DNA of 36,681 nt from Kiritimatiellia bacterium (lineage in GTDB: Bacteria > Verrucomicrobiota > Kiritimatiellia > RFP12 > UBA1067): positions 1 to 36,681 of the forward strand of contig JAFVZE010000299.1 in assembly GCA_017508315.1 (NCBI GenBank), given 5' to 3'. The number at the start of each line of letters is the position of its first letter. Position 1 is the first letter of the stretch. A program made the position numbers and the translations under genes. The notes under the pieces were generated by a model. That model was not told the origin of the DNA, did no database searches, and saw nothing but the letters and a program-made list of their open reading frames with translations. Positions 20,787-31,634 of this stretch are shown piece after piece.

Positions 20787-22550
20787 ATGAAACTCGATCC
20801 GACGAAGATGAAGGACTGGCAGATAGCCGAAGCCGCGGAAGAGACGCTGCGCCCGGTCAGGGAACTGGCCGCGGAGCTGGGACTTGCCGAGGACGAATGG
20901 CAGGCTTACGGCGACGCGCTCGCGAAGGTGGACGTCACCAAGGTGCTGAAACGCGTCGGTACGGGTCGCGGAGGCAAATACATCGATGTCACCGCCATCA
21001 CCCCGACGGCGCTCGGAGAAGGCAAGACCACGACCACGCTCGGTCTCGTGCAGGGATTGGGCAGGCTCGGCAAAAAGGTGATCGGCTGCGTCCGTCAGCC
21101 CTCGGGCGGCCCGACCTTCAACATCAAAGGCTCCGCCGCGGGCGGAGGTCTCGCGCAGGTGGTGCCGCTCACTTCGCTTTCGCTCGGGCTCACCGGCGAT
21201 ATCGACGCGATCACCAACGCCAACAATCTGGCGATGGTCGCGCTCAACTCCCGGATGCAGCACGAGCGCAACCACGACGATGCGTGGCTCGCCGAGCGCG
21301 GACTCAAGCGTCTGGATATCGACCCCGGACGCATCCAGTTCCGCTGGGCGATGGATTTCTGCGCCCAGGGGTTGCGCAGCATCGAAATCGGGCGCGGCGG
21401 AAAACTTGACGGTTTCAACTGCGAAAGCGGCTTCTACATCACGGTCGCCTCGGAGGTGATGGCCATTCTCGCCATGAGCGCCGATCTCGCCGATCTGCGC
21501 AGACGCCTCTCGAAGATCGTCGTGGCCTATTCCAAGTCCGGCGATCCCGTCACCGCCGCGGATCTCGAGGTCGACGGTGCGATGTGCGCGCTTCTGGTCA
21601 ACGCCATCAAGCCCACGCTCATGCAGTCGCTCGAAGGTCAGCCGATGTTCGTCCACGCCGGTCCTTTCGCCAACATCGCCATCGGACAGAATTCCGTCGT
21701 CGCCGACAGGCTCGCATGCGCTCTCGGCGATTACGTGGTGACCGAGTCCGGCTTCGCCTCCGACATGGGCTACGAGAAGTTCTGGAACATCAAGTGCCGC
21801 TGCTCCGGACTCAAGCCGGATGCGGTCGTGCTCGTCGCCACGGTGAGGGCGCTCAAGGCCCACGGCGGCGCGCCGGCGGTGAAGGCCGGGCTGCCGCTCG
21901 ATCCGGTTTATACGACCGAGAATCTGGAGCTGCTGGAGAAGGGCTGCGACAATCTTCTGGCGCACATCGACATCATCCGCCGCTCCGGCGTCCAGCCGGT
22001 GGTGTGCCTGAACGCATTTTACACCGACACTCCCGCCGAGCGCGATCTCGTGCGCCGCATCGCCGAAGAGGCCGGCGCGTCCTTCGCGGTTTCCGACCAC
22101 TGGCTCAAGGGCGGCGAGGGTGCGCTCGAACTTGCCGAGGCGGTCGTGAAGGCGTGCGAAGAATCGAACGGTTTTTCGTATCTCTGCGATCTGAACGAGC
22201 CGCTTAAAGACCGTATCGAAAAGCAGGTGAAGGAGGTCTACGGCGGCGACGGCGTCGATTACGAGCCGCTCGCGCTGGAGAAGCTTGAAGCGTATCAGGC
22301 GGATGCGGAAACCGCGGCGCTGCCGATTTGCATCGCCAAGACGCAATATTCGCTTTCCCACGATCCGAAACTTCTCGGACGTCCCAGGGGCTGGCGCATG
22401 CCGGTTAAAGACGTGCTCGTCTACCGCGGCGCCGGACTGCTGGTGCCGGTGGCCGGCGAGATCAAACTCATGCCCGGAACGTCGGCGTCGCCCGCCTACC
22501 GCCGAATCGACGTCGATGTCGAAACCGGAAAAGTCAAAGGACTCTTCTAA
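20787..22550 (+). CDS. fhs: Formate--tetrahydrofolate ligase
   Basis: VTAITPTALGEGKTTTT P-loop and long collinear Fhs-type sequence. ATG 20748 (ATGA overlap) is an alternative start. Confidence 0.9.
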   Translation: MKLDPTKMKDWQIAEAAEETLRPVRELAAELGLAEDEWQAYGDALAKVDVTKVLKRVGTGRGGKYIDVTAITPTALGEGKTTTTLGLVQGLGRLGKKVIGCVRQPSGGPTFNIKGSAAGGGLAQVVPLTSLSLGLTGDIDAITNANNLAMVALNSRMQHERNHDDAWLAERGLKRLDIDPGRIQFRWAMDFCAQGLRSIEIGRGGKLDGFNCESGFYITVASEVMAILAMSADLADLRRRLSKIVVAYSKSGDPVTAADLEVDGAMCALLVNAIKPTLMQSLEGQPMFVHAGPFANIAIGQNSVVADRLACALGDYVVTESGFASDMGYEKFWNIKCRCSGLKPDAVVLVATVRALKAHGGAPAVKAGLPLDPVYTTENLELLEKGCDNLLAHIDIIRRSGVQPVVCLNAFYTDTPAERDLVRRIAEEAGASFAVSDHWLKGGEGALELAEAVVKACEESNGFSYLCDLNEPLKDRIEKQVKEVYGGDGVDYEPLALEKLEAYQADAETAALPICIAKTQYSLSHDPKLLGRPRGWRMPVKDVLVYRGAGLLVPVAGEIKLMPGTSASPAYRRIDVDVETGKVKGLF

Positions 22551-23353
22551 TGAAAAGAAAAATCGTTCTCGTCGTCTCCCTGGCGGCCGGGCTGCTGGCC
22601 GCGGTGCTGACGCGCGTGTGCATCTCCGCCAAGGACGCGGAGGTGAAGGCGCTCAAAGACTCCATCAACCGGCGGTACGGAACGATGGAGGTTCTGTGCT
22701 TCGCGCGCGAAATCCCTTCGGGGAGCGAGCTCGCCAAATCCGACCTCGGGCTGAAGACGGTGCCGGCCGTCGGCATGCGCGGACAGGCGCTGACGGCCGA
22801 GAACGTCGCCGACGTGGTCGGGCGCAGGGTGCTTATCGGGCATAAGCGCGGGGATGTCGTGTTCTGGTCCGATATCGAAGGCGGCGATCCGTCCGCGACC
22901 GGACTTTCCGCCGACGTCAAGCGCCAGATGCGGGCGGTTTCGATCAACTGCACGGGGGCGGCGAGCGTTTCTTCGATGGTGCGTCCCAACGACCACGTCG
23001 ACGTCATCGGCACTTTCGATTTCGAAGGCGCCGGCGGCCGCCGCAATTTCGTGACCTGCACCATTCTGCAGAACGTGCTGGTGCTCGCCACCGGTTCCGA
23101 AACCGCGAAGTCGCGTCTGCGTTCGCAGGGGATCAGCCGCGCCTACTCCACGGTCACGCTCGAAGTGACCCCGCGCGAGGCGGAAATGCTCGCGTTCGCC
23201 GAGCAGATCAAGGGGCGGCTGGTGCTCACCCTGCGCAACCGCAACGACACTTCCTACGAGAAGGAGCTCCCCAAGGTCGATTTCGAGAAAATCCGCGGGG
23301 AGATCGAAGAGTTGAACCTCAAACGCCAGACCCAGAAACTGACGAACCGCTGA
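22550..23353 (+). CDS. cpaB: Flp/Tad pilus assembly protein CpaB/RcpC-like
   Basis: N-terminal TM helix, a SAF-like segment (IPSGSELAKSDL...GDVVFWSDI), then the CpaB/RcpC region (VSINC...VRPNDHVDVIGTF...VLVLATG...VTLEVTPREAEMLAFA). Confidence 0.75.
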   Translation: MKRKIVLVVSLAAGLLAAVLTRVCISAKDAEVKALKDSINRRYGTMEVLCFAREIPSGSELAKSDLGLKTVPAVGMRGQALTAENVADVVGRRVLIGHKRGDVVFWSDIEGGDPSATGLSADVKRQMRAVSINCTGAASVSSMVRPNDHVDVIGTFDFEGAGGRRNFVTCTILQNVLVLATGSETAKSRLRSQGISRAYSTVTLEVTPREAEMLAFAEQIKGRLVLTLRNRNDTSYEKELPKVDFEKIRGEIEELNLKRQTQKLTNR

Positions 23354-23354
23354 T

Positions 23355-25004
23355 ATGATTCTGACCTCGCTCATCGACGGCAATCGCGAAACCCGGGAGC
23401 TCGAAGACGGAGCCTATCTGATCGGGCGGGCGGAAAACTGCCGGATATGTTTTCCGTTTCCGGACGTCAGCGAGCGCCATGCCATTCTGACCGTCCGCGA
23501 CGGCCGTGCCCTGCTTGAAGATCTGCACAGCGCCAACGGCACGTTCGTCAACGGCGAACGGATCGATTCCGCCTGCAGGCTCGACGGTTCGATGGTGGTG
23601 CAGATCGGCTCGGGGATGTTCCGCGTGAGCGAAAGCGCGCCCGAGGCCGTTGATGAAGAGGCCGCGGAGCCGGAAGACGTTCCGGAAAATACGCCCGGGG
23701 ACGCTCCGGACGAAACGGCCGATCCGCTCAGAAATCTCCGGCGCAACGTCCAGACGCAGATCCAGATGGAACTTCTCAAGCGTATGGACATGAAGAAGCT
23801 CACCGTTCAGGGCGTGGACCGGGAAGGTCTGGAGGAAAACGCCCGCGACAGGATACGGCAGATCATCGACGAGGTCGTCGCCAACGGACGGCTTCCGCAC
23901 GGGATCGATCCCATCCGGCTGGAAGAGGATGTGTTCAACGAAGCCATGCGTCTGGGACCGCTGGAGGAACTGCTCGCCGATGATTCGGTCTCGGAAATAA
24001 TGGTCAACGGGCCGGAGAAGGTGTATGTCGAGCGCAACGGCAAACTGCTGCTTTCCGACTGCCAGTTCGCCGACGACGCGAGCGTGATGGCGGTGATCGA
24101 ACGCATCGTCTCGCCGCTCGGCCGGCGCATCGACGAATCGCAGCCGTATGTGGACGCGCGGCTTTCGGACGGCAGCCGCGTCAACGCGATTATCGCTCCG
24201 CTCGCGCTTTCCGGTCCTACGGTCACCATCCGCAAGTTCGCCAGAAAAGCGCTCACGCCGGTCGACTTCATCCGTTACGGCACCTGGACGAAGGGAGCGG
24301 CGGAGTTCATGCGGCTTTGCGTCGTTCTGCGCAAGAACGTGATCGTCGCCGGCGGAACCGGCTCGGGCAAAACGACGCTCCTGAATCTGCTTTCGGGTTT
24401 CATCCCCCCGGCGGAACGCATCGTCACGGTCGAGGACGCCGCGGAACTGCGTCTTCAGCAGCCGCATGTCGTCAGGTTGGAGGCGCGTCCGCCCAACATT
24501 GAAGGCAAGGGAGCCGTCCCTATCCGCGACCTCGTGAAAAACTGCCTGCGGATGCGCCCGGACCGCATCATCGTCGGCGAATGCCGCGGCGGCGAGGCGC
24601 TCGACATGCTTCAGGCGATGAACACCGGACACGACGGTTCGCTCACGACGGTTCACGCCAATTCGCCGCGCGATGTCATCTCGCGTCTGGAGACGATGGT
24701 GCTCATGAGCGGCATGGAGCTCCCGAGCCGCGCCATCCGCGAACAGATCGCCTCCGCCGTCGACATCATCATCCACGAATCGCGCATGTCCGACGGTTCG
24801 CGCAAAGTGACGTCGATAACCGAGGTGACAGGGCTTGAAGGCAGCCAGATCGTCATGCAGGAGATTTTCGCTTTCAAGCAGTCCGGTGTCGACGGGAACG
24901 GCAAGATCATCGGCGAAATGAAGCCGACGGGTTCGGTGCCGACATGGATCGACCAGCTCAAGAGCCGCGGCATAGAATTCGACATGGGGGTGTTTTCCGA
25001 ATGA
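23355..25004 (+). CDS. cpaF: CpaF/TadA-family secretion ATPase with an N-terminal FHA domain
   Basis: FHA motifs (GR...SERHA...NGTFVNG) at the N-terminus, then an acidic linker. Walker [13 protein letters not shown] and [33 protein letters not shown]. Confidence 0.88.
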
Positions 25005-25678
25005 CCGCATGGCTCGCCACGCTCCTGTTCGCCTTGTGCTTCGCCGGTGTCGCCTGGTGCATCGTCGGTTCGATCAGGATAAAATCCGGCTGGCAGAACG
25101 GCACTTCGCCGCTTGCGCGGTATCTCGACTTCCGCCGCCGCGAAGCGTTCAACGCGCAGCTCCCGGAGGCGCTCTCGACGATGTCGAACGCTCTCAGGGC
25201 GGGTTTTTCCGTTTCCCAGGCGTTCGATTCCGTGGTGGACCGCGGCGAGGATCCGATGAGCGAGGAGTTCCGGATCCTCCAGCAGCAGCTGAAGATCGGC
25301 ATGGGTTTTGAAGAAGCGCTCGAATCGATGGCGGGCAGAGTCGGCTCCGACGACTTGACTCTGGTCACGACCGCCATCCTCATAAGCCGCAAGACCGGAG
25401 GAAACGTCACCGAGATATTCGACAAGATATCCGAGACGATCCGCGGACGCATGAAGATCGAGCGTAAGGTGAAGTCGCTGACGGCGCAGGGAAGAATGCA
25501 GGGGATCATCGTTTCGGTTCTGCCGTTTTTCCTTGCGGCGGTGATGACGGCCATAAAGCCCGGACTCATGCTTCCTTTTTTTGCGAGCGCGGCCGGGATG
25601 CTGGCGATGCTGTTCACCGTCGCGCTTATCCTGATGGGATGGCTGATAATCCGTAAAATCGTCAAGATAGACGTATAG
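25001..25678 (+). CDS. TadB/TadC-type platform protein with a single T2SSF domain
   Basis: LPEALSTMSNALRAGFSVSQAF ... GNVTEIFDKISETIR ... KVKSLTAQGRMQG pattern of T2SSF domains. ATGA overlap with cpaF. Confidence 0.75.
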   Translation: MTAWLATLLFALCFAGVAWCIVGSIRIKSGWQNGTSPLARYLDFRRREAFNAQLPEALSTMSNALRAGFSVSQAFDSVVDRGEDPMSEEFRILQQQLKIGMGFEEALESMAGRVGSDDLTLVTTAILISRKTGGNVTEIFDKISETIRGRMKIERKVKSLTAQGRMQGIIVSVLPFFLAAVMTAIKPGLMLPFFASAAGMLAMLFTVALILMGWLIIRKIVKIDV

Positions 25679-25691
25679 TGCGTTCAGAAAG

Positions 25692-27065
25692 ATGCCGAAG
25701 ATGGGAAAGATGATTGAGAAAGCCCTCTCCTACACCACCGACACGAAGGAATGCGTGATCGCCCCCGGCGCGGTGGAGAGCGCGGCTAAAATGTTCACCG
25801 GCCTTTTCCCGGGCGCGGGCGAGGCGTATCTCGTGTTCGACCCCAATACGTGGAAGGTCGCCGGAGAGAGGGTTGATGCGCTTTTGAGCGCGGCGGGAGT
25901 CGCCGTGCGCCGCCATGAGCTCGGAGCCGACGGAAAGCCGTTTCATGCGGAGTACCGCTGGATCGAGGAGGTCCGCGGGAGGTATCTCGCCGCGTTTCCC
26001 GGGGCGAAGGTTCCGATGGTCGCCGTCGGCTCGGGGACCGTCAACGATATCGTCAAGCGCACTTCGGAGGAGGTCGGCGTCAGGTACATGGTCGTCGGCA
26101 CCGCCGCGTCCATGGACGGTTATACCAGTTTCGGCGCGGCGATCACCAGGGACGGCATGAAGCAGACGCTTTCCTGCAAAGCTCCGCTCGGCTGCATCTT
26201 GGACAGCCGGATAGCCGCCGCCGCTCCGAAGGAGATGACGGCCTCGGGGTATGCCGATCTGATCGCGAAAATCCCCGCCGGCGCCGACTGGATGCTTGCC
26301 GATGCCGCAGGCTCCGAGGCGATACATCCCGTTGCGTGGGAGCTGGTGCAGGATTCGCTGCGCGACGCGCTCGACAATCCGGCGGGCTGCGCGGCGGGGG
26401 ATGTCGCGGAGGTGGAGAAACTCTGCGCGGGACTGGCGATGAGCGGTTTTGCGATGCAGGCGATGAATTCCTCCCGTCCGGCTTCCGGCACCGAACACCA
26501 GATATCCCATTACTGGGACATGGAAGATCTTTCTTTCGGGGGAAAAACGGTGTCGCACGGTTTCAAAGTCGGGATCGGCACGTTGGCTTCGACCAGAACC
26601 CTGGAATTTCTGTTGAGCCGTGACATCGCGAATCTGGACGTCGAGGCTGCGGTCGCGGCGTGGTGGCCGGATTTCGAATCGCTCAAAGCCTCCTTCCCCG
26701 GAGTCTTCGGAAATCGTCCCGCGCATATCCGCCGCGCGGAACTGGAGATGGTTAAGAAATATTCGACCCCGCAGGCGCTTCGGGAGGAACTCGGCAACAT
26801 CAGGCGCGTCTGGCCGGAGCTTTCCGGAAGAATCAGATCCCAGCTGATGCCGTTCGAGGAGGTCCGCGCCAAGCTGAAGGCGGCGGGAGCGGCGTACGAG
26901 CCGGAGATGATAGGAGTGGACCGTCTGCGCTTCAGGGAGACGTTTGCCGGGGTTCCGTATATGCGCAGCCGCTATTTCGCGCTCGATCTCGTCGAACGGC
27001 TTTCGCTGATGCCGGCGCTCGGACGGGAGTTGTTCGGGGCGGGCGGAACATGGGAAGTCAGGTAG
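25692..27065 (+). CDS. Fe-ADH_2 / sn-glycerol-1-phosphate dehydrogenase-like (AraM/EgsA family) oxidoreductase
   Basis: GSGTVNDIVK, GTAASMDGYTS, SGTEHQISHYWD and SHGFKVG follow the G1PDH family pattern, with an extra C-terminal extension of about 100 aa. Confidence 0.6.
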   Translation: MPKMGKMIEKALSYTTDTKECVIAPGAVESAAKMFTGLFPGAGEAYLVFDPNTWKVAGERVDALLSAAGVAVRRHELGADGKPFHAEYRWIEEVRGRYLAAFPGAKVPMVAVGSGTVNDIVKRTSEEVGVRYMVVGTAASMDGYTSFGAAITRDGMKQTLSCKAPLGCILDSRIAAAAPKEMTASGYADLIAKIPAGADWMLADAAGSEAIHPVAWELVQDSLRDALDNPAGCAAGDVAEVEKLCAGLAMSGFAMQAMNSSRPASGTEHQISHYWDMEDLSFGGKTVSHGFKVGIGTLASTRTLEFLLSRDIANLDVEAAVAAWWPDFESLKASFPGVFGNRPAHIRRAELEMVKKYSTPQALREELGNIRRVWPELSGRIRSQLMPFEEVRAKLKAAGAAYEPEMIGVDRLRFRETFAGVPYMRSRYFALDLVERLSLMPALGRELFGAGGTWEVR

Positions 27066-27084
27066 AGAAAGACGGGGACGAACA

Positions 27085-27714
27085 ATGAAAGAATGGTATG
27101 TGAGAACCGAAGAAGGCAGCGTTTACGGACCGGCGGATGTCGATTCGCTCGTGGAATGGGCGAAGGACGGTCGGATCGCGCCTTCATCGTTCATTTCTAA
27201 AGACAGGATTTCGTGGGTTCCCGCCCAGACGATGGGCGAGTTGGAGATGAAGTGGCTGGTGGAAACGGAGCCCGGCAAGGTTTTCGGGCCGTTCAACCGC
27301 AAGGTCGTCATTTCGATTTTTGGCGACGGAAGCGTTCCGGCCGGTGCAAAAGCATACCGGCTGCACGAGTTCCCGGTGGACGAAGATCCGCCGCCGGTGG
27401 AGAAGATCGTCGAGATTCCGGTGGAAAAAATCGTGGAAGTCGAAAAGGTTGTCGAGGTCGAGAAGATCGTCGAAGTGGAAAAGGTGATCGAGAAGATCGT
27501 CGAGGTTGAGCCTAAGGCGCGGGTCGAACTGATTGTTCCGGAAGCGGTCGAGCCGGTCGGTGCGGAACCTCCGCCCAAGGCGAAGGATTCGCTCTTCGGC
27601 TCGTTGGGAAAGAACGGTTTGGCCGCGCTTGAGGCGCAGGCCCGTCGTGAATTGGCCGCGGCCAAGGGAGGTTTTTTCTCCCTGCCCGGCGGAAAGTTCG
27701 GGAGGAAGCGTTGA
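27085..27714 (+). CDS. GYF_2 (DUF4339)-like domain protein with (V/I)EKIVE repeats
   Basis: WYVRTEEGSVYGPADVDSLVEWAKDGRIAPSSFI..WVPA, then a second degenerate module, then 38 codons of EKIVE-type repeats and a basic tail. Confidence 0.7.
   Translation: MKEWYVRTEEGSVYGPADVDSLVEWAKDGRIAPSSFISKDRISWVPAQTMGELEMKWLVETEPGKVFGPFNRKVVISIFGDGSVPAGAKAYRLHEFPVDEDPPPVEKIVEIPVEKIVEVEKVVEVEKIVEVEKVIEKIVEVEPKARVELIVPEAVEPVGAEPPPKAKDSLFGSLGKNGLAALEAQARRELAAAKGGFFSLPGGKFGRKR
27397..27510 (+). repeat. In-frame coding repeat VEKIVEIPVEKIVEVEKVVEVEKIVEVEKVIEKIVEVE
   Basis: Imperfect repeat units of 12-24 nt read directly from the DNA. Shares atcgtcgagattccggtggaaaa with 28126-28148. Confidence 0.9.
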
Positions 27715-29138
27715 TGAACATCTCCAAATGGTATCTGCGAACCCAGGATGAAACTTTCGGCCCGGAAACCGGCGAACAGCTGGTCGCCTGGGCGAAACTC
27801 GGGCGCATCCAGCCCGGACAGGAGATTTCCGACGACAATATCATCTGGCGCCGGGTGGAGGAGGTGCCGTTTCTGGATATGCGCTTTTCCATCGATATAG
27901 GGGACGGCAATCCCCGCGGGCCTTTCAACAAGGCCGCCGCGCAGGCGCTGCTTTCGAGCGGCCGACTGCCGCCGACGGCCAGCATGGTCGAAGTGCGCGA
28001 GCCGTTTCCCGAGGAAACCGTCGACCGGGAGGAGCCGTCGGAAGCGGATGAAACGGCGGAGGGGGAGAAAGTTCCCGACGAGGCGGAGAAGGAAGTCGGG
28101 GCGGTGGAGAGGATTGTCGAGAAAATCGTCGAGATTCCGGTGGAAAAGATCGTCGAGAAGGAAGTGCGTGTGGAAATCCCGGTGGAGAAGATCGTCGAAA
28201 AGACCGTGATCGACGAAACGAGGGTGAAGGAACTTGAAGGGTTGCTCGCCGAAGAGCGCAGGCATACCGCGGATCTGCAGCGCCGGGTCGACGAATCGCT
28301 CGGGAACGCAGCGGCCGCCGCGCGTGAAGCTGCGGAAAAGGAAAGTTCCCTCTCGGTGCAGGTGAGCGAGCGCGACGGCAGAATCCGCGAACTTGAAGGC
28401 GCCTTGTCGGTCAAGGAGTCGGCGCTCAAAGATGCCGTCGACCGTGAAAACCTGCATGCGGAACAGATTCGCCGTCTTGAGGACGAACTGCGCCGGCTGC
28501 CGCAGGCCGCGAGCGAGGTCGCGGACATCCAGGCGGCGATATTCACGATAATGTCGCGGGAGTCCGAAGAGCTCGCCAGACTGGCCGAAATCGAAAAGAA
28601 GGAGTTCGATGAGTTCCGCAAGCGCCATCAGGAGCGGGTGGATCGCCTGCAGGAGCGGCGTCGCGACATACTCAAACGCTCGGGGTCGAACATCGAGGAG
28701 ATGACCCGCAGGGCGCTGATCGAACGGCCGGAGGATCCGCGCACCGCGCAGCTGCGCACCGAGCTCGACGAATTGCGCAGGATGCACGAAAAGGCGATGC
28801 GCGAAAGCGAAAGACGCATCGGCGAGCTCAACGGCAAGCTGCGTCTGCGGCAGACCGAAGAGGCCCGCGCGAAAGAGAATCTCAAGGATGTCACGCAGCT
28901 GCGCTCGGAGGTTCAGGCGCTGCGCGAACAGCTGCAGCTGCGGGAAAAGGAACTGCTCGCCGAGCGGCAGAAGAACGAAGAGCTCCAGCAGCGTCAGGCC
29001 ACCCGCCAGCAGGCGCTCATGGCGCGTATCGCCTCGCTTGAATCGCCGTCGATCGGGACCTCCCAGACGCTTTCGACGAATCAGAGCCGCGAGGCCAAAC
29101 AGGTGAAACTTCCGGGATGGATGAGACTGGGGCTGTGA
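27714..29138 (+). CDS. GYF_2-like domain protein with (V/I)EKIVE repeats and a long coiled-coil region (paralogue of the upstream gene)
   Basis: WYLRTQDETFGPETGEQLVAWAKLGRIQPGQEI..W, a second module, VERIVEKIVEIPVEKIVEKEVRVEIPVEKIVEK, then about 280 aa rich in heptad-like E/R/L/Q sequence. TTG 27711 is an alternative start. Confidence 0.7.
   Translation: MNISKWYLRTQDETFGPETGEQLVAWAKLGRIQPGQEISDDNIIWRRVEEVPFLDMRFSIDIGDGNPRGPFNKAAAQALLSSGRLPPTASMVEVREPFPEETVDREEPSEADETAEGEKVPDEAEKEVGAVERIVEKIVEIPVEKIVEKEVRVEIPVEKIVEKTVIDETRVKELEGLLAEERRHTADLQRRVDESLGNAAAAAREAAEKESSLSVQVSERDGRIRELEGALSVKESALKDAVDRENLHAEQIRRLEDELRRLPQAASEVADIQAAIFTIMSRESEELARLAEIEKKEFDEFRKRHQERVDRLQERRRDILKRSGSNIEEMTRRALIERPEDPRTAQLRTELDELRRMHEKAMRESERRIGELNGKLRLRQTEEARAKENLKDVTQLRSEVQALREQLQLREKELLAERQKNEELQQRQATRQQALMARIASLESPSIGTSQTLSTNQSREAKQVKLPGWMRLGL
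28104..28208 (+). repeat. In-frame coding repeat VERIVEKIVEIPVEKIVEKEVRVEIPVEKIVEKTV
   Basis: Second copy of the EKIVE-type repeat family, in the paralogous gene. Confidence 0.9.
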
Positions 29139-29139
29139 G

Positions 29140-30684
29140 ATGAACATACTGTTTGCCGTAATCGCCGCGCTTTCGATCTGGGACTATCCGGCCCGCCAGC
29201 CGACGCATGAGAAACTGCGCCGCCAGTTCATGGCGGCGATGAAGGAGGGCGATACGCCGTCGATGACGGATGCCTGCCGCAAAGGCGTCTCTCTGCTGCC
29301 CGACGATCCGACGTGGCGTTACAATCTCGCCTGTTCGCTGGCGTACTACAAGAATCCGGAACCGGCGTTCGACGAACTCGAAAAGGCGATCGATCTCGGT
29401 TTCCGCGATGCCGACGCGATCGAGCGCGACAGCGATCTCAAACGGATCAGCCGTCTGCCGCGTTTCCGCGAACTCGTCGATTACGCCCGCAGAATCCGCA
29501 CCAGACCGATCATGACCGGTCCGATGGCGAACGTGGCGGCGACGGGAATATTCGGCAAGACCGTTTCTCTGGGCGAGCAGAATCTGTCGTGGGACTTCGA
29601 CCACGGCTGTTTCGTCGCGAATCTGAAGCTTGCGCAGGCGTCCGCCGGGGGCAATTCCGGCGATCTTTATTTCAATCGCGACGCCCTGCATTCGGCGTTG
29701 CCGCTGGCGGATTTTCCGGGAATTACCGCAGTCCGGCTCGATCAGCAGGGACGGGAGCGGCAGATGGATCTCAATTTTCCGAATATGCTTTTCCCCTATC
29801 CCGTGTTCGGCAACTGTTCGCGGGCGTTCGTCGCCGGAAAATACTGGCGGTCGCTCTCCCGTGCGCTCACGACCATGGATTCGTGGCGGATGAAGGCGAT
29901 GGTGAAATTCTATCTTTCGAACCAGACATGGGTGTTTCCGTCCAACGCCGATACCGCGCCGGTGGGTACCAACGGCGATGTCTTCGCGTCCATCACCCCG
30001 TATTGGATCACGACCGCCGGCCGCAGTTATTCCGATCTGCCGTATCTGCGCGCGGCGCTTGAGGCGTCCCGTTCGTTCAGACCGGAAACGAAAAAGGCGG
30101 CGGTCGCCGCCGGATTGCTCGCGCCGACCGTTCAGACGCTGATCCGCAAATCGCTCAAGGGGGTGGATGACGAGGAGGACTACCTGACTTCCAAGGCCCA
30201 TCCGACGGCGTTCCCTCCCAATGCCGTCGAGATGATGCGTCTGTCCGCGGCCGCCGGAAAGATGAAGCCGGAGGAGATTCCGCCGCTTGCGATGATCGGA
30301 GTTACCACCATGCCGATGAAGAGCGCGGATCCCCGTCCGGAGCTTACGTACGCGAGCGCGTTCGCGTGGGCGTTCGTCCTCCGCGCCGATGCCGAAGAGC
30401 GTGTGTTTTTCATCAACGCCAGAGGCGCGCAGGAATTCGCTTTCGTCAAAACCCGCGGCGACGGCGTGGACGTGCGCATTGAGAAGACCTCTCCCGATAC
30501 CGCCAAGGTTCTGATCAACCGCAGGGGAATGTCGCCGACGAACCGGGTCGATGTCGCCGTGTTCGGAAAAAACGCCGCAACGGGATGGGGGGCGCCGAGC
30601 TACGTTTCGTTCGCCCGCATGGACAGCGGCGCGGCGTATTCCGATCCGGTGCTGACAACTCCGCCGCCGCCAGCCGAGAAATGA
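29140..30684 (+). CDS. Hypothetical protein: N-terminal anchor/signal, a TPR-like module, and a large unknown domain
   Basis: WRYNLACSLAYYKNPEPAFDELEKAIDLGFRDADAIERDSDLKRISRLPRFRELV is a common TPR-end pattern. I recognise nothing in the remaining ~390 aa. Confidence 0.6.
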   Translation: MNILFAVIAALSIWDYPARQPTHEKLRRQFMAAMKEGDTPSMTDACRKGVSLLPDDPTWRYNLACSLAYYKNPEPAFDELEKAIDLGFRDADAIERDSDLKRISRLPRFRELVDYARRIRTRPIMTGPMANVAATGIFGKTVSLGEQNLSWDFDHGCFVANLKLAQASAGGNSGDLYFNRDALHSALPLADFPGITAVRLDQQGRERQMDLNFPNMLFPYPVFGNCSRAFVAGKYWRSLSRALTTMDSWRMKAMVKFYLSNQTWVFPSNADTAPVGTNGDVFASITPYWITTAGRSYSDLPYLRAALEASRSFRPETKKAAVAAGLLAPTVQTLIRKSLKGVDDEEDYLTSKAHPTAFPPNAVEMMRLSAAAGKMKPEEIPPLAMIGVTTMPMKSADPRPELTYASAFAWAFVLRADAEERVFFINARGAQEFAFVKTRGDGVDVRIEKTSPDTAKVLINRRGMSPTNRVDVAVFGKNAATGWGAPSYVSFARMDSGAAYSDPVLTTPPPPAEK

Positions 30685-31634
30685 AGCTCGTCCTCGCACC
30701 TTTGGCCGGTTTCACCGACGCTCCCTTCAGACAGATGTGCTTCGAGGGCGGGGCGGATATGGCCTATACCGAAATGGTCAGCGCCGCCGGGCTCGCGCAC
30801 GGAAGTTCGCCCACGCGGCATCTGATGGAAACGCTTCCCGGCGAAGGGAAACTGGCCTGTCAGATATTCGGCTCCAGAGTTTCGGATGTGGCATATGCCG
30901 CGAAAATCGCCACCGAGACCGGGAGATTCCGCGAGCTGAATCTCAATGCCGGATGTCCGATGCCGAAAGTGACCCGCGAAGGCGCGGGGGCGAAACTCAT
31001 CGAAAACCCCCGTCTGATCGCGCAGCTGCTCAAGGCGATGACGGACAACACCGATCTGCCGGTCACGCTGAAAACCCGTCTCGGTCCGCATCCCGGACGG
31101 ACCAATGTTTTCGAGATCGCCGAAGAGGCCGCGCGCGCGGGCGCCGCCGGGATCATCGTCCACGCCCGCTACACGAGTCAGATGCACGGCGGACCGGTCC
31201 ATCTCGAAAAACTCTCGGAACTGGTGCGCCGCAGTCCGCTGCCGGTAACCGGAAACGGTTCGGTGACCAATGCCGCGGAACTCTCGGCGATGTCGCAATG
31301 CGCGGTGGATGCGGTCATGATCGGCCGCGCCGCGCTGGCGAAGCCGTCGCTTTTCTCGGAATTGAAAGGTGCGCCTCCGGAAAAAGCGTCCGCCGCGGAG
31401 ATGTGCGAACGGCATCTCGGCCACATTCTGTCGTTCCGCGAACAGTTGGCGCGCAGGTATCCGCTCGATCACGTGCCGTCGGCGGACGGATTTTCTTCGG
31501 TCAAGATGCATACGCATCTTTTCCGCTATTTCAACGGCAGACCCGGCGCGGCGGCGTTGCGCGCCCGCCTCAGCACGGTAAGAACACTCGCCGAGATCAG
31601 GGAGATAATCGAAAATGAAAAAAGTGTCGATTGA
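30681..31634 (+). CDS. dus: tRNA-dihydrouridine synthase
   Basis: LAPLAGFTDAPFRQM, EMVSA and LNAGCPMPKV (catalytic Cys) motifs. ATGA overlap with the upstream gene. Confidence 0.88.
   Translation: MKLVLAPLAGFTDAPFRQMCFEGGADMAYTEMVSAAGLAHGSSPTRHLMETLPGEGKLACQIFGSRVSDVAYAAKIATETGRFRELNLNAGCPMPKVTREGAGAKLIENPRLIAQLLKAMTDNTDLPVTLKTRLGPHPGRTNVFEIAEEAARAGAAGIIVHARYTSQMHGGPVHLEKLSELVRRSPLPVTGNGSVTNAAELSAMSQCAVDAVMIGRAALAKPSLFSELKGAPPEKASAAEMCERHLGHILSFREQLARRYPLDHVPSADGFSSVKMHTHLFRYFNGRPGAAALRARLSTVRTLAEIREIIENEKSVD

Follow-up and report, generated by a model that had tools for sequence, protein, structure and literature searches.

A clade-wide cpaB-FHA-cpaF-short tadB unit in Kiritimatiellae, joined in one species to two independently inherited gene units

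Tad or Flp (type IVc) pilus systems have been described as compact gene sets. Their genes are encoded together, scattered loci are "very rare", and the pair of TadB and TadC is systematically present (Denise et al. 2019, PMC6668835). The same study reported Tad-like systems of Actinobacteria without TadC or minor pilins, and its "generic" model requires a major pilin in the cluster (PMC6668835). Here, we analysed a stretch of 36,681 nucleotides from a Kiritimatiellia bacterium (GenBank assembly GCA_017508315.1, contig JAFVZE010000299.1), referred to as the window over its full length. Seven open reading frames (ORFs) at positions 22550-30684 encode CpaB, an FHA-CpaF fusion and a short TadB, together the trio, followed by a protein related to sn-glycerol-1-phosphate dehydrogenase (G1PDH), two GYF proteins and a TPR protein of 514 amino acids (aa). 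We found that this 8-kb chain consists of three independently inherited units, which are juxtaposed only in this Kiritimatiellae species. The first unit is fhs-cpaB-FHA-cpaF-tadB, the second is the G1PDH-like gene and the third is a GYF-GYF-TPR/orphan-Dus block, which ends with a tRNA-dihydrouridine synthase (Dus) gene.

A metagenome scan added 80 loci to the comparison, and the totals given here refer to the 87 non-self related loci with a short TadB. Homologues of the short TadB form more than 100 clusters at 73-77% identity, and nearly all of them, among the best 120 matches, are 225 aa long. CpaF is encoded directly upstream of TadB in 81 of the 84 informative loci, and the complete trio is visible in 40 of the 87. 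The median identities across the clade loci are 67% for CpaB (40 loci), 78% for CpaF and 72% for TadB. Upstream, fhs adjoins cpaB in 19 of 25 related loci whose sequence extends for 2 kb or more on this side. The conserved unit cpaB-FHA-cpaF-tadB ends at tadB, and the genes downstream of it vary among relatives, at least 3 kb of downstream sequence being available in 32 of the 87 loci. In the locus L094, whose TadB is 84% and whose CpaB is 93% identical to that of the window, tadB is followed by GH123, DnaX and peptidase M24 genes. In other relatives this place is taken by a YggS-like gene (L092), a TMEM260-like gene (L162), an ABC ATPase gene (L155) or, in L090, a gene of opposite orientation. 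A G1PDH-like, GYF or 514-aa gene stands beside the trio in none of the 87 loci.

A sequence-only reading of this DNA had linked the trio with the G1PDH-like gene, the two GYF/coiled-coil genes and the TPR gene, as parts of what might be one repurposed system. Its eight ORFs and all its junctions were recovered in the sequence exactly as listed, and its family assignments hold according to the Pfam and NCBIfam scores. The stop codon of fhs and the start of cpaB share a TAATG (22548-22552). A 1-nt gap separates cpaB from FHA-cpaF, which overlaps tadB in an ATGA (25001-25004). Gaps of 13 nt and 19 nt lie before and after the G1PDH-like gene. The two GYF genes overlap via a TGATG (27712-27716), the second is 1 nt away from the 514-aa gene, and the latter overlaps dus in an ATGA (30681-30684). 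These tight or overlapping junctions, found in the window species and in near-identical metagenome copies, speak for a single system. The proposed link did not survive the comparison of gene order, however. The order cpaB-cpaF-tadB-G1PDH-like-GYF-GYF-TPR is kept in 0 of the 87 related loci and is already broken at 84% TadB identity in L094, while the GYF-GYF-TPR-Dus genes stand elsewhere in relatives. We consider the units to be separate because none of the 87 loci joins them, and because elsewhere the G1PDH-like gene stands in conserved contexts of its own, as does the GYF block. Moreover, the entire 36-kb window is chained just as tightly. One system made up of all these genes is thus highly improbable.

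The 36.7-kb window consists of tightly packed, co-directional genes on the + strand and has about 60% GC. Since all of it is chained in this way, adjacency alone weighs little, which bears out the caveat of the earlier reading that adjacency is weak evidence. Every plausible gene of positions 1-36681 was found on the + strand, with minimal or overlapping junctions, and the cumulative GC skew climbs over nearly the entire length before it dips slightly in the final 2 kb. A scan for promoters and terminators that might mark operon boundaries gave counts no higher than those of shuffled controls.

The domain layout of the trio proteins is as follows. CpaB has an N-terminal transmembrane (TM) helix, an SAF-like domain and an RcpC domain. 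In FHA-CpaF, an N-terminal FHA domain is followed by a variable acidic linker and the T2SSE ATPase. The Walker A, Walker B, Asp box and His box motifs of CpaF are invariant in 30 clade sequences. In the same 30 sequences the phosphothreonine-binding signature of the FHA domain (G-R / S-x-x-H / N-G) is conserved to at least 80%, and only the acidic linker varies. The short TadB consists of one N-terminal TM helix, the T2SSF domain and C-terminal TM helices. It shares 50% identity with the TadB of the outgroup locus L009 versus 20-22% with TadC proteins and, judged by sequence, it is a true TadB orthologue. It is without the first and third hydrophobic segments (TM1 and TM3) that are found before the T2SSF domain in full-length TadB proteins. 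One helix instead of three still gives an odd number of membrane crossings, so that the T2SSF domain should keep its side of the membrane.

The trio is a maintained gene set, not a wreck, because the ATPase motifs are invariant, the FHA residues are conserved, the identities are high and the length of TadB is fixed. That the trio is instead decaying, as what is left of a Tad locus without function, would be in line with the loss of components which the outgroup retains (Flp, TadE/G and TadC) and with the truncated N-terminus of TadB. Against such decay, the ORFs are complete and unbroken wherever a locus is long enough, the catalytic motifs are invariant, and the median identities given above hold over a diverse clade with TadB fixed at 225 aa. 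We regard a remnant as extremely improbable.

The conservation of the trio also bears on the idea that it is a satellite or spare copy, with a complete canonical tad locus, including its own CpaF, TadB and TadC, elsewhere in the genome. Multiple CpaF copies in one locus or genome are common in other phyla, and L022, L028 and L051 each have a second CpaF. Among the best 120 TadB matches, by contrast, there are only 225-aa orthologues, and the strong conservation of the trio argues for a primary role. A satellite copy is in our view quite improbable.

Short tadB genes that stand apart from cpaF were observed in L089 (10001-10675), L122 (2861-3535) and L124 (463-1125), which illustrates that the trio can be broken up. 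In L089 the gene is preceded by GH97 and laminin-G genes. We considered whether these lone TadBs are a second paralog that replaces TadC and rejected this: they form a single small subclade nested among trio-linked copies, which indicates local relocation and not a second paralog.

Where the trio comes from is indicated by the outgroups. The closest CpaF matches listed among species-representative genomes are L009 (57%), from an unclassified metagenome-assembled genome (MAG), and L010 (50%), from a Lentisphaeria MAG. The L009 locus encodes two Flp pilins, a TadE-like and a TadG-like protein, CpaB, FHA-CpaF, TadB (298 aa) and TadC (302 aa), with identities to the window proteins of 57% for CpaF and 50% for TadB. 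L010 encodes CpaB, FHA-CpaF, TadB and TadC, then a DUF192 protein, an FHA protein and a PEGA protein. The gene content of L009 and L010 implies that the trio derives from a fuller Tad cluster, and the clade locus has lost Flp, TadE, TadG and TadC relative to the nearest outgroup. In L010, These last three proteins of L010 (13564-17011), of which the FHA protein has 560 aa and the PEGA protein four repeats, may be accessory parts of FHA-type Tad-like systems. FHA-fused CpaF also occurs in Myxococcota, Proteobacteria and Lentisphaeria among the matches listed, and the FHA-CpaF fusion is not new in itself.

Several searches for the other Tad components were made around the trio. A second T2SSF gene (TadC) was found neither in the window nor, over about 10 kb, in any clade locus. 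A Flp-type or type IV prepilin motif is absent from all frames of the window, and a regular expression for the Flp motif matched 0 of 96 clade loci versus 47 of 80 canonical Tad control loci. With tblastn, neither the Flp, TadE-like, TadG-like and TadC proteins of L009 nor the additional proteins of L010 (TadC, DUF192, FHA, PEGA) had a match in about 790 kb of clade loci. TadZ/CpaE gave no Pfam match, neither in the window proteins nor in genes called on related contigs. An RcpA/CpaC secretin was not matched among the window proteins or the annotated related contigs, and no unexplained family recurs near the trio. The ORF families that do recur there are housekeeping families only (TMEM260-like, RecJ, aminotransferase) and reflect shared gene order. 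Other type IV filament components were not seen among the scanned window proteins. The earlier reading had noted a trio without TadC, TadZ, pilin, pseudopilin or secretin nearby; within about 10 kb of the trio this proved to be a clade-wide trait and not a quirk of the window. Its statement that a prepilin peptidase is missing stands for the window, where we found none, and does not extend to the whole clade: a PilD-type peptidase (A24_N_bact and Peptidase_A24) is encoded 3 kb from the trio in two related loci. It lies downstream, after a GtrA-like gene, in L109 (11730-12611) and L110 (13683-14561) only. At the locus level, the CpaF-type ATPase, TadB and CpaB of the Tad model are present, and TadC, Flp, TadZ and the secretin are not. 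As to the generic type IV filament model of Denise et al., an ATPase and a platform protein are found without a pilin-like ORF in the cluster or its flanks. The trio would be called by neither model.

We propose that the proteins of the trio form an inner-membrane sub-complex, the motor of a stripped-down Flp/Tad (type IVc) machine. A CpaF hexamer would act as the ATPase and would be gated or recruited through its FHA domain, which would bind phosphothreonine proteins and might thereby take over the role in recruitment and regulation that TadZ has in canonical systems. A homo-oligomer of the short TadB could serve as the platform in place of the TadB/TadC pair, and CpaB would be the membrane-anchored component that reaches into the periplasm. 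The motor may still polymerise pilins, using a peptidase and a secretin encoded elsewhere. The trio would have been inherited vertically downstream of fhs and would probably be co-transcribed with it. We give a probability of about 0.62 to the three-unit account combined with the view that the trio serves a reduced or scattered Tad-type machine as its inner-membrane motor. That the trio still builds a filament from pilins encoded elsewhere is the reading which we prefer for its function and hold to be rather probable. The PilD-type peptidase of L109 and L110 shows that a capacity for prepilin processing exists in the clade, and the Actinobacterial Tad-like systems without TadC and minor pilins are a precedent for a reduced trio (PMC6668835).

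Some points weigh against this proposal. Scattered Tad loci are very rare and the TadB/TadC pair is systematic (PMC6668835), which makes an ordinary scattered Tad pilus less likely than one might at first assume. The roughly 790 kb of clade DNA, a sample that represents one neighbourhood of about 20 kb taken from many genomes, showed neither a pilin nor a secretin, TadC or TadZ. Further, units that co-occur in the same genomes might in principle be functionally linked even where they share no gene order.

The same observations can be read in favour of an autonomous Tad-derived motor that forms no filament and has another task in the inner membrane or periplasm, independent of the GYF and TPR genes. 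In at least 40 loci the trio is conserved as an isolated unit, around which, over about 10 kb, no gene for a pilin, a pseudopilin, TadC, TadZ or a secretin was found, and the outgroup retains the components. In addition, scattered Tad loci are very rare (PMC6668835), and the platform is reduced to one short TadB. However, the periplasmic CpaB is retained, which suggests an envelope-spanning structure, and a PilD-type peptidase exists in the clade. No type IV filament ATPase/platform pair is known to work without a pilin substrate. We consider such a motor unlikely. In its strictest form, the trio would have lost pilin, pseudopilins, TadC, TadZ and secretin altogether, would work without a Flp filament and would form a new minimal class of the type IV filament superfamily; this we consider unlikely as well. 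The motor of a reduced filament machine is the preferred reading.

The association of fhs with the trio probably reflects inherited gene order and co-transcription. This one-carbon gene was seen to be consistently joined to the trio (window 20787-22552; L090, L099, L108-L110 and others). On the other side of the trio, 13 related loci encode a TMEM260-like O-mannosyltransferase that contains TPRs and has about 1,100-1,200 aa. Its gene stands directly after tadB or one gene away, for example at 10669-14043 in L162 and 7786-11292 in L090; none is present in the analysed part of the window.

The features of the window are collected in Table 1. The region lies among housekeeping genes, with MurF and formate-tetrahydrofolate ligase encoded upstream and Dus, a thioesterase, the tRNA deaminase TadA and a fucokinase-like protein downstream. 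It is present, identical or near-identical, in five gut or rumen metagenome assemblies, so that the source is probably an uncultured Kiritimatiellae species of the gut or rumen. Membership in a defence system was considered and rejected, as the proteins encoded here have no PADLOC matches.

Table 1. Features of the analysed region, with positions counted along the window
Feature	Coordinates	Strand	Matches and remarks
s92, small membrane protein of 92 aa	20473..20751	+	precomputed Pfam PF28597 T2SSF_N; between murF and fhs
Formate-tetrahydrofolate ligase (fhs)	20787..22550	+	PF01268, 747 bits; stop overlaps cpaB start
CpaB/RcpC	22550..23353	+	PF16976, 88.9 bits; TIGR03177, 150 bits (cut-off 71); first trio gene
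FHA-CpaF, Tad-type secretion ATPase	23355..25004	+	PF00498, 62.8 bits; PF00437, 216 bits; TIGR03819, 341 bits
Short TadB, 225 aa	25001..25678	+	PF00482, 71 bits, single T2SSF domain; last trio gene
G1PDH-like Fe-ADH_2 dehydrogenase, 457 aa	25692..27065	+	PF13685, 100 bits
GYF_2 protein 1, EKIVE-type repeats	27085..27714	+	PF14237, 27.1 bits (cut-off 25.8)
GYF_2 protein 2, repeats then long coiled coil	27714..29138	+	PF14237, 27.6 bits (cut-off 25.8)
514-aa protein, TPR/orphan/Ig-like	29140..30684	+	only match TPR_END_plus, 50.7 bits
tRNA-dihydrouridine synthase (Dus)	30681..31634	+	PF01207, 219 bits; last gene of GYF block

The G1PDH-like protein has the Fe-ADH_2 fold in common with bacterial G1PDH of the AraM/EgsA type. 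It exceeds the solved G1PDHs (338-414 aa) in length by about 60-100 aa, however, and its score of 128.6 bits against the G1PDH equivalog NF002022 lies below the cut-off of 413. Its best match in the PDB is the G1PDH 9h4x (E = 1.4e-33), and a 68%-identical orthologue in a Kiritimatiellae MAG has been named G1PDH by NCBI. The gene is conserved across the clade, where relatives carry it in contexts of GDPD, GlpA-like, DUF1667, HAD and MFS genes or of GH39 and MFS genes. In the Kiritimatiellae relative L176 (4899-11522), for instance, it has a GlpA-like dehydrogenase/DUF1667 pair on one side and a HAD hydrolase with an MFS transporter on the other, and a GDPD fragment is adjacent. This context hints at a role in glycerol-phosphate metabolism. 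The G1PDH-like gene is predicted to be an independent metabolic gene of glycerol-phosphate or sugar metabolism.

The order GYF-GYF-514aa-Dus and its 4-nt overlap are kept in L006 (7837-12492), L007 (7882-12549) and L008 (613-5232), as compared with 27085-31634 in the window. Upstream of the block, these three loci have a YebC or a metalloenzyme gene, neither the trio nor the G1PDH-like gene. As far as gene order and protein similarity indicate, GYF-GYF-TPR/orphan-Dus is a separate clade-wide operon, and its coupling to dus is the sole clue to its role. Both GYF_2 scores are marginal, and in protein 2 no single stretch passes the cut-off alone. The orthologues of GYF protein 2 in L006-L008 have the same position and are 58-66% identical. 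The gene of GYF protein 1 contains an 18-nt tandem repeat (27431-27485), and the protein has 199 aa in L001 (9300-9899) versus 209 aa in L002 (9808-10437), two near-identical metagenome copies. This difference in length is consistent with copy-number variation of the 18-nt EKIVE-type repeat.

The 514-aa protein has 693 homologues and is 62-67% identical across the clade. An AlphaFold2 model (predicted local distance difference test, pLDDT, 88.9) begins with a TPR part, has a highly conserved domain in its centre and ends in an Ig-like beta-sandwich. Only the two terminal parts match PDB entries; for the central domain (about residues 130-380) there was no PDB match in sequence or fold. This domain is near-invariant, for example at D175, Y177, N179, R180, D181, H184 and H354. 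Going by the model, the central domain could be an orphan enzyme fold specific to the clade.

The 92-aa ORF between murF and fhs, here called s92, had been overlooked in the earlier reading. Its AlphaFold2 model (pLDDT 93.2) shows an N-terminal beta-beta-alpha-beta domain and one long helix. The precomputed PF28597 match is present on L001 and L094 and weak on L002 and L003, and the local Pfam library gave no match. A search of the PDB returned no significant match in sequence or fold, and no full-length GspF or PilC is among the 85 HMMER matches to s92. The T2SSF_N label could not be confirmed by any of these searches (local Pfam, HMMER family, PDB). The family comprises 85 representative clusters, and in many members the C-terminus is extended by about 150 aa that match no known domain. 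The ORF is found near the trio only in the window species and L094. We considered s92 as a missing platform piece or fourth component and rejected it: it is unlike the N-termini of TadB and TadC, has no PDB support and is not a conserved neighbour.

Overall, our data caution that in strand-biased genomes of the Planctomycetes-Verrucomicrobia-Chlamydiae (PVC) group tight chaining does not indicate shared function. The finding that survives is a clade-wide, strongly conserved cpaB-FHA-cpaF-short-tadB unit whose other Tad parts are not nearby. It departs from the published picture of Tad as a single locus with a systematic TadB/TadC pair (PMC6668835). If the partners are absent genome-wide, the trio would define a minimal motor derived from type IV filaments. 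It would then offer a simple system to ask what an ATPase, a platform and CpaB do alone, and how phospho-signalling through FHA controls them. Separate leads in this abundant, uncultured lineage of the gut are the GYF-GYF-TPR/orphan-Dus operon and the central domain that matched nothing in the PDB.

Among the described systems, the Actinobacterial "generic" Tad-like systems resemble the trio in having a single one-domain TadB and no identifiable TadC or minor pilins (PMC6668835). They differ in that they belong to monoderms and have a major pilin in the cluster, whereas the trio has no pilin nearby and belongs to a diderm PVC host that would need a secretin.

The FHA-CpaF Tad-like clusters of Lentisphaeria, Myxococcota and Proteobacteria (L009-L038) have the same FHA-CpaF fusion, with CpaB encoded upstream and TadB downstream, and in L009 and L010, as in the trio locus, no TadZ was detected. 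In contrast to the clade of the window, which keeps none of these, they keep TadC and often Flp pilins, pseudopilins or extra FHA and PEGA proteins. The Kil apparatus of Myxococcus is Tad-like as well.

The likeness to the Tad/Flp pilus itself, as in the Cpa system of Caulobacter and the Tad system of Aggregatibacter, lies in the CpaF/TadA ATPase, the TadB with a single T2SSF domain, CpaB/RcpC and the order cpaB...cpaF-tadB. The trio locus differs from it by being without TadC, TadZ/CpaE, Flp, TadE/F/G, TadV/CpaA and RcpA/CpaC. Moreover, its TadB is shortened to 225 aa, its CpaF is fused to an FHA domain, and it consists of three genes only, set among housekeeping genes.

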